The notes: generated by a model not told the origin, from the sequence alone. Positions 6,340 through 59,139 are shown, counted from the first letter of the stretch. The stretch: DNA of 64,000 nt from Candidatus Omnitrophota bacterium (GCA_041651035.1 JBAZKC010000001.1:131244-195243); one strand, 5' to 3'. Translations and numbers: made by a program.

Positions 6340-6500
6340 TCTTTCGAGGGGACGAATACACAGGCAGGTCTTCTGGCTTCCGGATCGGCCTACTCACCAA
6401 GCCTTCCCATCTAAAGAACTCACGATAGTGGCTAGTTACGGCTTTCGTCCCCGGTTACAGCGGCGGGACCGCGCTTGCTTTTACAAGCTTCCCTTTTATC
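6340..6500 (-). promoter_or_regulatory. Cobalamin (adenosylcobalamin) riboswitch, copy 1. It is 5' of the TonB-dependent receptor, exbB, exbD, tonB, thyX operon.
   Basis: The minus strand contains the CGCCGCUGUAACCGGGGACGAAAGCC core, GCCACU...GGGAAGGC and a B12 box AAGCCAGAAGACCUGCC. A near-identical paralogous copy lies at 58835-58980 upstream of the cob operon. Confidence 0.85.
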
Positions 6501-6733
6501 CTGCGAACAGGACCTGTATATATACAAAAACCCAACCTCCTTAATAGAGACTGGGTCAAATAATCTTTCTTGCTAAGACTATTTTCAGCACCTCTATTCC
6601 CGGAGGCCTTCGTGTTCTGACTTGCCGGCCGTCTTTAAACGCCGGCACACAGTTGCGGGTACAGTTACGGATTCTCACCGAATTCCCTGCAAAATCTGAC
6701 TTAATTAAAACACGCGCCTTCCTATTTGTCAAG

Positions 6734-48175: not shown

Positions 48176-48252
48176 GATTTCATCCGCTTCGCTACTGAAA
48201 TCTACTGCGCACGCTTCGGAGTGAAATTTTTTGTAAAGCAAAAAATTTCAAG

Positions 48253-48329
48253 GGTGGCTGACGGGGCTCGAACCCGCGACCTCTAGAGCCACAGTCTAGT
48301 GCTCTAACCAGTTGAGCTACAGCCACCAG
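48253..48329 (-). tRNA. tRNA-His (anticodon GUG)
   Basis: The minus strand reads gGUGGCUGUAGCUCAACUGGUUAGAGCACUAGACUGUGGCUCUAGAGGUCGCGGGUUCGAGCCCCGUCAGCCACC. The extra 5' G pairs with the discriminator C. Has GTG in the anticodon loop and T-loop GGUUCGAGUCC. CCA is not encoded. Confidence 0.9.
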
Positions 48330-49546: not shown

Positions 49547-49598
49547 AGTTTAATTATGGTGCGCCTGGGCCGAATCGAACGGCCAACCGTCTGCTTAG

Positions 49599-50251
49599 CA
49601 TACCGCACCGAATTTCTTCGGCCAAAATGTTGCGGTCTGGACTATGTCTTCACCATTTCAGGTGTGTGGCGTATAGTCTCTGAGGACTCTCGTTATATAT
49701 CGCGATAATCATCTGCCCATTTAACATACTTAGTCTGATTATTGCCTGGCTTATTGAAACGTATAGCCTTAGGACAATCAGTAGAATTCGGGACGTACAA
49801 AACTGTTTCCTTATTCGGACAATAGATTGCATAATAATCAAAGTCTCGTTCTTTATAGGCATGTATATGTGTACCGTGTTTATCTGCCCAACTCGTCCTA
49901 AACTTAACTTCGATTATTCCATTACTAAGTAACGTGGTGTATTTCACTTGTAATTTAACCGCTTTGCCGTCCTTCAAAATAGCTACAATGTCATAAGGCT
50001 GGTGTTCCGACAGCGGGATGCATGGAACATATCCCCTCTGAACTAAGTCAGCGATAACCTTTGCTACCCCGATATCAGCCTTGACTTTCGTATGATGCAA
50101 CATTCACCTCCTTTCCATATTATTTTGGGCGTTAAGACTACCTGCGTTAAAACGGTTGCCTGCAAGTTATCCGTGCTTACGCATGAGGATTTTCTTGCAT
50201 ATAGCCACATCCTCTCTATGCGTTTTAGTTTCCGCATAGAGGCTCCTACTG
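49599..50251 (-). mobile_element. Group I intron inserted after tRNA position 34
   Basis: R-like element CAGAGACUAUA (49672-49682) and S-like element AAGACAUAGUCC (49639-49650) can form P7. Terminal G. Contains an ORF in the same orientation. Confidence 0.75.
49693..50103 (-). CDS. Intron-encoded PD-(D/E)xK-like nuclease (Hjc/I-Ssp6803I-like), putative homing endonuclease
   Basis: 136 aa with ...SEHQPYDIVAILKDGKAVKLQVKY... (E...D...(E/Q)xK pattern). GGAGG lies upstream of the ATG. Confidence 0.55.
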   Translation of the reverse strand: MLHHTKVKADIGVAKVIADLVQRGYVPCIPLSEHQPYDIVAILKDGKAVKLQVKYTTLLSNGIIEVKFRTSWADKHGTHIHAYKERDFDYYAIYCPNKETVLYVPNSTDCPKAIRFNKPGNNQTKYVKWADDYRDI

Positions 50252-50433
50252 AAGGCAGATGCTCTATCCATTTGAGCTACAGGCGCATGTAAATCCTGTA
50301 AAAACTACTTGCGTAAAAAGCCTTCTATCGCCGCAAAACAGATCCCGCAGCGCACTGTAGATTCTACCACAAATTATAAATAAAGAAAACTAGAAAGATT
50401 GGGCTTGCGGACGCGAATTGAAGAATATTTGGC

Positions 50434-52762: not shown

Positions 52763-53586
52763 TTTTCAGGGTGTAATATTGTAACTAATTCTTTTAGAGT
52801 CCTCGTAAAGTTTACCGGGGTAGGAATGCAGAGCATATAAGAATCAATAATGTGGATCCGGCCGTTTCTTACCGCGCTTATAGTCTTATATCTCTGCCAG
52901 GCAGCCTTTTCATCCTGGCCGGTTATGCCCATGGTCGCGATAATAATTACGTCCGGATCCTGTCTTACCACTTCCTCGCGGCTATAGAGCTCTATTTTCG
53001 CGTCCTGGGAAATATTTATCCCTCCGGCGAATTGAATAAAATCATTGACGAAAGAACTATTTGTTACGGTGTATAAAGGCTTTGCTCCTATTTGCACGAA
53101 AACCTTGGGCCTCGGCAGGCCCTTAACACTTTTCTTAATAAGCTCCACATCGTCTGCGGCCTGACGGACTATCTCTTCTGCTTGCTTCTCTTTCCCGATG
53201 ATCCTGCCTAATTCCAGAAATTGCCCGCAGATCTGGGAAAAACTGCTGACAGAAGTAAAATCAACTACCCTTATCCCTAAATTCCTTAATTTCTCTTTTG
53301 TCTTCGGGTTCGTTAAAGATGCTGTTAACACCAGATCGGGCTTAAGGCTGACGATTTTTTCTAAATTTGCGTCGGTTACCGTCCCTACTTTTTCCTTATT
53401 CCGCGCTTCCGGAGGCCTCTGGCAGTATACTGTGCAGCCTATTAATCTATCCTGCGCGCCCAGGAGATAAATCTCTTCCGTAAGATAGGGGCTTAAAGAA
53501 ATTATCCTCTGGGGATAGTCTTGTGAATAAAGAGGCCCTTGGCACCAGAATACCAAAACACAGGCAATAAACAACAGTTTCTTCAT
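52759..53586 (-). CDS. btuF: Periplasmic substrate-binding protein, cluster A-2 (BtuF-like corrinoid-binding)
   Basis: 275 aa with signal peptide and RIISLSPYLTE, LKPDLV motifs. Confidence 0.75.
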   Translation of the reverse strand: MKKLLFIACVLVFWCQGPLYSQDYPQRIISLSPYLTEEIYLLGAQDRLIGCTVYCQRPPEARNKEKVGTVTDANLEKIVSLKPDLVLTASLTNPKTKEKLRNLGIRVVDFTSVSSFSQICGQFLELGRIIGKEKQAEEIVRQAADDVELIKKSVKGLPRPKVFVQIGAKPLYTVTNSSFVNDFIQFAGGINISQDAKIELYSREEVVRQDPDVIIIATMGITGQDEKAAWQRYKTISAVRNGRIHIIDSYMLCIPTPVNFTRTLKELVTILHPEK

Positions 53587-58799: not shown

Positions 58800-58834
58800 T
58801 GCACCCTGTTTTAAGCTTTAACCCTTCCGCGAGG

Positions 58835-58980
58835 ACCTGATATAGGCAGGTCTTCTGGCTCCCGGATCACTCTACTCATCAGGCCTTCCCGCCCGAAAAT
58901 TTACGGGCAGTGGCTGATTATGACTTTCGTCCCCGGTTACAGCGGCGGGACCGCATCCGCTTTCACGGATTTCCCTTAAC
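58835..58980 (-). promoter_or_regulatory. Cobalamin riboswitch, copy 2, controlling the cob/btu operon
   Basis: Same conserved cores as copy 1, including CGCCGCUGUAACCGGGGACGAAAG, GCCACUG...GGGAAGGC and B12 box GAGCCAGAAGACCUGCC. Confidence 0.85.
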
Positions 58981-59061
58981 CTATATCCAAATTTGTATTT
59001 ATTCTTACACCCTGCGGACTGTTTGTCAACGTTTTTCTTGCGTAAGAATACCGCTTATATA

Positions 59062-59139
59062 TGGTCGGGGCGACAGGATTTGAACCTGTGACCTCTTGCT
59101 CCCAAAGCAAGCGCTCTAGCCAAACTGAGCCACGCCCCG
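59062..59139 (-). tRNA. tRNA-Pro (anticodon UGG)
   Basis: The minus strand reads CGGGGCGUGGCUCAGUUUGGCUAGAGCGCUUGCUUUGGGAGCAAGAGGUCACAGGUUCAAAUCCUGUCGCCCCGACCA. Anticodon loop UUUGGGA. CCA is encoded. Confidence 0.9.

Follow-up and report, generated by a model that had tools for sequence, protein, structure and literature searches.

The 64-kb stretch of DNA analysed here (JBAZKC010000001.1:131244-195243; 64,000 nucleotides, hereafter the window) contains a tRNA-Arg(UCU) gene, probably of an Omnitrophota bacterium, which, as we conclude with high confidence, is interrupted between U34 and C35 of the anticodon by a mobile group I intron. The intron occupies positions 49599..50251 on the minus strand (653 nt), starts with CAGUAGGAGCC, ends with GCGGUAUG and carries a gene for a predicted homing endonuclease of the PD-(D/E)XK family PF11645 (49693..50103, minus strand; 136 aa followed by a TAA stop codon). 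The element is well formed and, judged from its sequence, very likely functional. It is a further example, in a phylum new for it (probably Omnitrophota), of an already catalogued kind of intron, and extends a known class of mobile elements to a poorly studied candidate phylum.

Results and discussion

A tRNA-Arg(UCU) gene split behind the wobble base

The 5′ exon (50252..50286, minus strand, 35 nt) reads GCGCCUGUAGCUCAAAUGGAUAGAGCAUCUGCCUU and provides the 5′ strand of the acceptor stem, the D arm, the 5′ strand of the anticodon stem and C32-U33-U34, its 3′ end being ...CUGCCUU at U34. The 3′ exon (49557..49598, minus strand) runs from CUAAGCAGA to GCGCACCA (full reading CUAAGCAGACGGUUGGCCGUUCGAUUCGGCCCAGGCGCACCA) and adds C35-U36-A37-A38, the 3′ strand of the anticodon stem, the variable loop, the T arm and the 3′ strand of the acceptor stem; the CCA end is encoded. 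ARAGORN analysis of the joined exons revealed a tRNA-Arg(tct) of 77 nt that forms a canonical cloverleaf with four perfect stems. When introns were allowed, ARAGORN also reported a split tRNA in the window at exactly 49557-50286 with an intron of 653 nt, albeit with a misplaced anticodon, and in its default mode it made no call at this position of the window. Only at the junction U34 (50252)/C35 (49598) is a seven-nucleotide loop (CU-UCU-AA) restored with a U at the end of the 5′ exon and a G as the last nucleotide of the intron.

The codons AGA and AGG together account for 51% of the Arg codons in the 42 longest open reading frames (ORFs) of the window, and AGA alone occurs 12.0 times per 1000 codons. 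ARAGORN found no second tRNA-Arg in the 64-kb window, the only part of the genome that was covered. Since half of the Arg codons are AGA or AGG and no other tRNA-Arg is present in the window, it is very likely that the host needs this tRNA-Arg(UCU) and that the intron is spliced.

Comparative evidence for a group I ribozyme

The Rfam model for group I introns, Intron_gpI (RF00028), matched the P7-P3′-P8-P7′-P9 half of the insert with 22.6 bits (E=0.0026 in a 1-kb search), and a local match on P4/P5 yielded 12.2 bits. The gathering score of this model is 50, and at gathering thresholds an Rfam search of the whole window returned cobalamin riboswitches and two tRNAs only, with no family over the insert. 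As the Rfam matches were all below threshold, the fold was examined comparatively. To this end, 32 non-redundant homologous introns were aligned after deletion of the ORF, and helices P1 to P10, including P9a, were drawn by hand on the window copy. Across these 32 introns, standard base pairs occupy 94.9% of the cells, as compared to 31-43% after a shift of the 3′ partners by one to three columns, and 35 of the 56 pairs show changes on both sides. None of 500 shuffles reached any of the observed pairing measures. Minimum-free-energy folding of the ORF-deleted intron recovered P2, P3, P4, P5, P8, P9 and P9a (z = -3.8). In total, covariation backs eleven helices, which follow the canonical order of group I introns and include the P3/P7 pseudoknot. 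Comparison identifies the insert as a group I intron with an intact core; all ribozyme helices of the window copy are intact. Since the same split nucleotide and compensatory changes recur in dozens of independent genomes, the split reflects more than chance.

We attribute the low Rfam score to a weakness of the model and not of the RNA, because an ORF-less relative of 249 nt (L037) likewise reaches only 25.9 bits and because the Rfam group I seeds include no bacterial sequence (Williams 2020, bioRxiv 10.1101/2020.01.27.920355, where cut-offs of 18-20 bits were used). The consequence for annotation is that standard tRNA and Rfam scans miss this tRNA-Arg gene entirely. That is, such genomes would be annotated as lacking tRNA-Arg(UCU), because default ARAGORN and Rfam at gathering thresholds report nothing, and this gap would arise although half of all Arg codons are AGA or AGG.

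The individual elements, all on the minus strand, are arranged as follows. P1 (50243..50254) is formed by exon nucleotides C32-U33-U34 (50254-50252) and the internal guide G-A-G (50245-50243), which is part of a conserved AGGAGCC; it places a U34.G50245 wobble at the 5′ splice site, and its C-G, U-A and U.G pairs are identical in all 32 sequences. For P10, UAG (50248-50246) can pair with CUA of the 3′ exon, with 78% of cells paired. The P2 hairpin (50214..50241; 9 bp, CUCUAUGCG/CGCAUAGAG) shows double compensatory changes in eight of its nine pairs and is paired in 98.6% of cells. In P3, the 5′ strand UGUGGC (50204..50209) pairs with GCCACA (49665..49670), generating the group I pseudoknot with P7; covariation is seen in five of the six pairs, and pairing in 99.5% of cells. 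The P4-P5-P5a domain (50161..50199) consists of P4 (UGCAAG/CUUGCA, five of six pairs covarying), J4/5 (AAA), P5 (AUCC/GGAU) and a GUAA-capped tip, and its P4-P5 portion is what locally matches positions 60-96 of the Rfam model. The long insertion that holds the ORF starts after the P6 5′ strand region GGCAACC (50154..50160). On its other side follow the P6 3′ strand UCC (49686-49684), J6/7 (UCA) and the P7 5′ strand G(A)GACUAU (49680-49673), the latter being contained in the R element UCAGAGACUAUA (49683..49672). Two G-C pairs of P6, involving 49685-49684, are conserved; at the third position, other clades have A-U or G-C where the window copy has C.U. P7, which is nearly invariant and has 100% of its cells paired, shows compensatory changes in three relatives (L035, L037 and L046). 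P8 is the hairpin CACC UGAAAU GGUG (49651..49664; three of four pairs covarying, 100% of cells paired). It is followed by the S element AAGACAUAGUCC (49639..49650), comprising J8/7 and the P7 3′ strand (AAGAC AUAGUCC). P9 (ACCGCA/UGCGGU, three of six pairs covarying), P9a (CCGAA/UUCGG, five of five) and the terminal AUG occupy 49599..49636. Position 49599 is the omega-G, and the terminal G before the 3′ splice site is an invariant column of the alignment.

Most of what the original prediction, made from the sequence alone, had proposed for the RNA is borne out by these data. Its coordinates for the two exons are correct, on the minus strand, as are the 653-nt gap between them, the cloverleaf with four perfect stems, the join after the wobble base within a CU-UCU-AA loop, and an insert that follows U34 and ends in G. 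Likewise, the R and S elements forming P7 and the hairpin near the 5′ end, i.e. P2, lie where they had been placed and are supported by covariation, and the assignment to group I rests on comparative RNA structure as well as on published precedent (see below). The Rfam search that had been suggested as a check did return matches, but with 22.6 bits (gathering score, 50) its outcome is a misleading near-negative.

Two alternative pairings were considered for the window copy. The sequence GAGG following P2 (50214-50211) was dropped as an alternative guide, as it reads AGUGG or AGUGC in relatives, whereas the GAG of AGGAGCC is invariant. A local P6 upstream of the ORF (GGC...GCC), another candidate pairing for P6/P6a, can be formed at many loci but not at all of them. 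An S-like motif at 53177 (minus strand) has neither a partner R element nor an Rfam match and was taken as a chance occurrence.

Some relatives deviate at the 5′ end of the intron. Seven of them (L008, L030, L034, L046, L050, L051 and L052) possess extra hairpins of 20-100 nt inside the P1 loop, between the 5′ splice site and the guide, that is within the first 30-110 nt of these introns; the window copy has 6 nt there. In another relative (L015; JACRDL010000108.1, 1045-1100), the 5′ exon ends with ...CUGCCAU|, with A33 replacing the universal U33, and the guide region contains an extra AU (GAUGAGCC), which could form a P1 of C-G, A-U and U-A pairs without wobble. The A33 and the altered guide could reflect a sequencing error or a real variant.

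The intron encodes an I-Ssp6803I-like endonuclease

The endonuclease gene is located in the P6 region, between the P6 5′ strand and P6′/J6/7. Directly upstream of its start codon lies the Shine-Dalgarno sequence AAGGAGGUGA (50104..50113, minus strand), which is kept in most of the aligned homologous loci. The deduced protein matches PF11645 (PDDEXK_5) with 100.9 bits, as compared to a cut-off of 26.1 (E=7.8e-29), and the domain is covered end to end, residues 3-135 aligning with profile positions 1-137 of 138. A scan of the 136-aa ORF against NCBIfam matched no family; homologues are named 'group I intron-associated PD-(D/E)XK endonuclease' by NCBI. An exact-sequence look-up of the 136-aa protein retrieved no record, the same locus being recorded as a 135-aa call from an internal start. 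By sequence, the closest solved relative is I-Ssp6803I (2OST). An AlphaFold model of the ORF product (pLDDT, the predicted local distance difference test, 89.8) agrees with this assignment: its best four matches in the PDB are the four chains of 2OST (E=2e-9, template modelling (TM) score 0.73/0.68).

An alignment of the window ORF with Omnitrophota, gammaproteobacterial, phage and I-Ssp6803I sequences revealed invariance of T5, K6, K8, D10, G24, P30, D38, V40, Q52, V53, K54, G62, D89 and Y94. In addition, E33 is near-invariant when compared with I-Ssp6803I and the phage and gammaproteobacterial homologues. I-Ssp6803I reads VQVK where the window ORF reads LQVK. In this alignment, D...QxK is the signature of the PF11645 family, and QxK is no variant, because I-Ssp6803I carries VQVK at the aligned position and Q52-V53-K54 is invariant. 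Thus, while Pfam (PF11645) and the predicted fold (2OST, TM 0.73) uphold the earlier view of a 136-aa PD-(D/E)XK protein resembling I-Ssp6803I, its description as a QxK variant of the active site has to be given up, as D10, D38 and Q52-V53-K54 do not vary within the family.

The homologues differ in length. Most of those from Omnitrophota comprise 151-152 aa, their ORFs continuing for 16 further codons through P6′, J6/7, P7, P3′ and P8 to a UAG inside the S element; overlap of ORFs with core sequences is known for some group I introns (PMC3984707). The window ORF stops at a TAA located 9 nt before J6/7. Forms of 135-137 aa occur in many independent clusters, and no other form is seen in the gammaproteobacterial clade or among free-standing copies (see below). 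The window ORF has each of the 35 residues that do not vary among 47 homologues. We judge the endonuclease gene to be intact, because the invariant residues are present, the Pfam domain is complete and the 135-137-aa forms recur.

The intron is present or absent at an orthologous locus

Scanning of a genome collection with the ORF yielded 49 species-level loci, and three more came from exact look-ups. All 49 endonuclease loci are tied to a tRNA-Arg(UCU) with an intron at the U34/C35 site. The gene resides inside the intron in 47 of them and beside an ORF-less intron in the other two (L035 and L037). Both exons could be mapped at 42 of the 49 loci and in each case constitute a tRNA-Arg(UCU) split at the identical nucleotide; the remaining seven, all with the same intron parts, involve contig ends, masked bases or a variant 5′ exon (L015, described above). 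The intron-bearing alleles derive from Omnitrophota-type metagenome-assembled genomes (MAGs) and from Gammaproteobacteria. The host of the window is probably an Omnitrophota bacterium, since the synteny of tRNA-Arg(UCU) with a DUF748 gene is common to many Omnitrophota MAGs and the closest endonucleases are found there.

A metagenome scan for the intron-less junction together with the same anticodon arm and T arm identified 89 contigs from JGI/ENA metagenomes, and the flanks were inspected in 80 of them (L055-L134). A DUF748 gene lies directly downstream in ~70 of these 80 contigs, and its product is up to 62% identical (amino acid level) to that of the window, as compared to 53% at best for intron-bearing genome loci. 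One intron-less allele differs by a single base from the spliced tRNA of the window; GCGCCTGTAGCTCAATTGGATAGAGCATCTGCCTTCTAAGCAGACGGTTGGCCGTTCGATTCGGCCCAGGCGCA is an example of an intron-less allele. Judged by these alleles, the intron shows presence/absence polymorphism at an orthologous locus, as would be expected of a homing element, since the intron-less alleles share the downstream DUF748 gene and a near-identical tRNA. Presence/absence polymorphism and spread across lineages, by which a mobile intron is recognized, are thus both seen in the sequences.

One related contig is unusual. Locus L003 (1255-2150; the contig is also L004, JAUYEC010000045.1) has an intron-bearing tRNA-Arg(UCU) with a mismatch in the anticodon stem, and extra partial tRNA ends are found ~70 nt upstream (GCGCCTGTAGCTCA) and ~100 nt downstream (CCAGGCGCACCA). 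These could stem from a nested insertion, a duplication or an assembly artefact.

Relation to known introns and endonucleases

The four classical intron-bearing tRNAs of bacteria have been extended to 21 settings (Williams 2020, bioRxiv 10.1101/2020.01.27.920355), and the seed alignment of that study holds Rba190.Arg.3Ug, an intron after U34 of tRNA-Arg. More recently, 'Arg (TCT) 34/35' introns were described in Bacillota and Bacteroidota and mostly classed IC3 (mSystems 2026, PMC13011429), among them a 639-nt intron in Bacteroidota GCF_009740285.1 that bears a homing endonuclease gene. The original prediction considered introns in tRNA-Arg(UCU) uncommon, which does not hold: such introns have been catalogued as Arg.3Ug or Arg(TCT) 34/35, PF11645 endonucleases occur in some of them, and all 49 loci found here are intron-associated. 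The published introns resemble the window intron in tRNA, insertion point and CUU/GAG P1. Their core also has in common with it GGAGCC after the guide, (U/G)(C/U)AGAGACUAUACG..., CCUGAAAUGG in P8 and AAGA.AUAGUCCAGACC. The intron of GCF_000246855.1 (Bacteroidota, IC3) is 81% identical to the ORF-deleted window intron (145 of 178 aligned positions). The endonuclease of the GCF_009740285.1 intron belongs to PF11645, is inserted at the same P6 position and is 47% identical over the 75 readable residues. With regard to the subgroup, the nearest published intron is classed IC3, and the next-best matches include a Lys(TTT) 34/35 intron of class IB2 that shows fair similarity as well. Differences from the published Arg (TCT) 34/35 introns concern the host phylum (Bacillota, Bacteroidota and Campylobacterota versus probably Omnitrophota for the window), P4-P5 (UCGGUG...CACCGA-type versus UGCAAG...CUUGCA in the window) and the ORF, which extends into the ribozyme core in most Omnitrophota copies, but not in the window copy.

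The enzyme I-Ssp6803I of Synechocystis PCC 6803 (2OST), a tetramer recognizing a 23-bp pseudo-palindromic target (PMC3384342), is likewise a PD-(D/E)XK enzyme from a group I intron in an anticodon loop, in this case that of tRNA-fMet. It shares the Pfam family, the fold (TM 0.73) and the D...QxK signature with the window ORF, but sequence identity is only 20-27%, depending on the alignment, and its host intron is inserted at fMet 33/34 instead of Arg(UCU) 34/35. The target specificities of the two enzymes must differ. The tRNA-Leu(UAA) intron of cyanobacteria and plastids (Leu.3Ug, IC3) also resides after U34 and shares P1, formed by C32-U33-U34 and G-A-G, as well as the P1-P9 architecture. 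However, it interrupts a different tRNA, its examples in the seed alignment are short (~210-260 nt) and ORF-less, and its core is less similar to the window intron than the cores of the Arg(TCT) 34/35 introns are.

A model for splicing and homing, and its alternatives

The following scenario would account for these features. The tRNA-Arg gene would be transcribed as a precursor of ~730 nt, in which the intron would fold into a group I ribozyme. C32-U33-U34 would pair with the guide G-A-G to form P1, the U.G wobble marking the cleavage site, and P3-P9 would make up the catalytic core, which includes the P3/P7 pseudoknot and, in P7, a pocket for guanosine. Splicing would start with the attack of an external guanosine after U34, whereupon the terminal G (49599) would take the same P7 pocket and the exons would be ligated, restoring the loop CU-UCU-AA. 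The 136-aa ORF, equipped with its own, strong ribosome-binding site, would yield a homing endonuclease of the I-Ssp6803I type. By analogy with I-Ssp6803I, this enzyme would cut intron-less tRNA-Arg(UCU) genes at the DNA of the anticodon stem-loop, a natural pseudo-palindrome; the likely target is TCTGC-CTTCTAA-GCAGA. The intron would then spread through repair from the intron-bearing copy.

Several observations weigh against a functional mobile intron: the Rfam score falls short of the gathering score (22.6 versus 50), the P6 pairing is weak in the clade of the window copy (only two G-C pairs, with C.U in third place), most Omnitrophota relatives have an ORF 16 codons longer, and the search for a second tRNA-Arg covers 64 kb of the genome. 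The short ORF could mean that a real group I intron, still spliced, has had its endonuclease disabled by the early TAA (136 instead of 152 aa) and is immobile and vertically inherited. We consider this unlikely. Although most Omnitrophota homologues, with 151-152 aa, do extend 16 codons beyond the point 9 nt before J6/7 at which the window copy stops, these extra residues are dictated by the ribozyme core sequence, and the 136-aa form covers the Pfam domain end to end and contains all 35 residues invariant among the 47 homologues. Moreover, forms of 135-137 aa recur and are the sole form in the gammaproteobacterial clade and the free-standing copies.

It is much less probable still that the locus is a decaying pseudogene and that decoding is left to an intact tRNA-Arg(UCU) encoded at another place in the genome. 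Such a scenario draws on the fact that the genome is seen over 64 kb only and on the related MAG (L003/L004) with its anticodon-stem mismatch and stray duplicated tRNA ends. It is at odds, however, with four perfect tRNA stems, with ribozyme helices that are all intact in the window copy, with the usage of AGA at 12.0 per 1000 codons in the absence of another tRNA-Arg from the window, and with the maintenance of the arrangement by compensatory changes in at least 40 genomes, which implies selection for splicing. Finally, the insert might not be a ribozyme at all but a nuclease cassette, a protein-spliced intron or a group II intron with R- and S-like motifs arising by chance, as the insert does not reach the gathering score of any Rfam family. 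We assign next to no probability to this idea, because eleven helices in group I order, including the P3/P7 pseudoknot, covary, a U precedes the intron and an omega-G ends it, and the insert is homologous to introns classed as group I IC3. The reading that best accommodates all data remains a mobile group I intron encoding an intact endonuclease.

Free-standing endonucleases beside tRNA-Arg(UCU)

At two of the 49 loci, the tRNA-Arg(UCU) contains an ORF-less intron (199 nt in L035, 249 nt in L037) at the same site, and the endonuclease gene is located just outside the tRNA. These free-standing homologues (L035:906-1614, CAYNTZ010000002.1; L037:1126-1979, CAYYFU010000074.1) are intact, 59-61% identical to the window ORF and placed ~20-45 nt from the tRNA, downstream in L035 and upstream in L037. 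In phages, homologues 42-43% identical are found directly downstream of an intron-less tRNA-Arg(tct) in Synechococcus phage Sf-FR1 (L053; PV340855.1, 163771-164345) and Acinetobacter phage Herod (L054; MW316732.1, 28097-28632). A scan of IMG/VR added 29 loci (L144-L172); the phage homologues, including those of Sf-FR1 and Herod, are 38-52% identical to the window ORF and reside in tRNA clusters of the phages. At 25 of the 29 IMG/VR loci (26 when one partial match is counted), the gene is free-standing, ~3-80 nt from an intron-less tRNA-Arg(tct), and the intron-borne form occurs in one only (L160). In a neighbour-joining tree, the free-standing L035 falls within the intron-borne Omnitrophota clade, beside L042, with which it shares the P9 type of the intron. 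L037 is basal to this clade, and Sf-FR1 groups with the intron-borne gammaproteobacterial clade.

The phage pattern suggests an endonuclease lineage that is tied to tRNA-Arg(UCU). With somewhat less than even confidence, we propose that a single lineage is dedicated to this tRNA and switches among three arrangements: free-standing by an intron-less tRNA as in phages, next to an ORF-less intron as in L035 and L037, and intron-borne as in the window and more than 40 genomes. The pattern may document transitions between the free-standing and the intron-borne state. If true, the loci would represent a natural series showing how an ORF-less intron and a free-standing endonuclease come together at one site, to fuse or to part again, and this series would link phages and bacteria. 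The occurrence of free-standing genes in phages and intron-borne genes in bacteria could provide a tractable system for studying the assembly of mobile introns. SegB of phage T4 is also free-standing and located in a tRNA cluster, but belongs to the GIY-YIG family (PMC2330249). 'Collaborative homing' (PMC3984707) involves a free-standing endonuclease and an ORF-less intron, as in L035 and L037, but the described cases concern protein-coding genes of phages. The pattern of free-standing and intron-borne forms was not found described in the literature compared here, which was not searched for this pattern specifically.

Two of these loci show additional peculiarities. In L146 (1402-1475; IMGVR_UViG_2778260978_000004), the tRNA by the free-standing endonuclease has the anticodon CTA ('Pyl' according to ARAGORN) instead of TCT; it may be a suppressor tRNA derived from the usual neighbour. 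In L035, a small GIY-YIG-like ORF (561-959; ...YVGMSQDVLKRLKEHNRG...) lies directly at the 5′ end of the intron-bearing tRNA-Arg(UCU), with a slight overlap. As the free-standing endonuclease lies on the other side, this tRNA is flanked by nuclease-like genes on both sides.

Genomic neighbourhood

In most related genomes, tRNA-Pro(UGG), tRNA-Arg(UCU) and tRNA-His(GUG) form a tight cluster. The cluster is loosened in the window (48252-48326, 49557-50286 and 59062-59139, all on the minus strand), where tRNA-Pro is located 9 kb upstream and the DUF748 gene lies between tRNA-Arg and tRNA-His. The cobalamin riboswitches mentioned above correspond to three matches (105.8, 35.3 and 100.9 bits) at window positions 6346-6686 and 58828-58999 (minus strand), the one at 58828-58999 lying just downstream of tRNA-Pro (59062-59139). 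The tRNA-Arg locus itself adjoins a gene of the CobA/CobO/BtuR family and genes for ATP-binding cassette (ABC) transporters.

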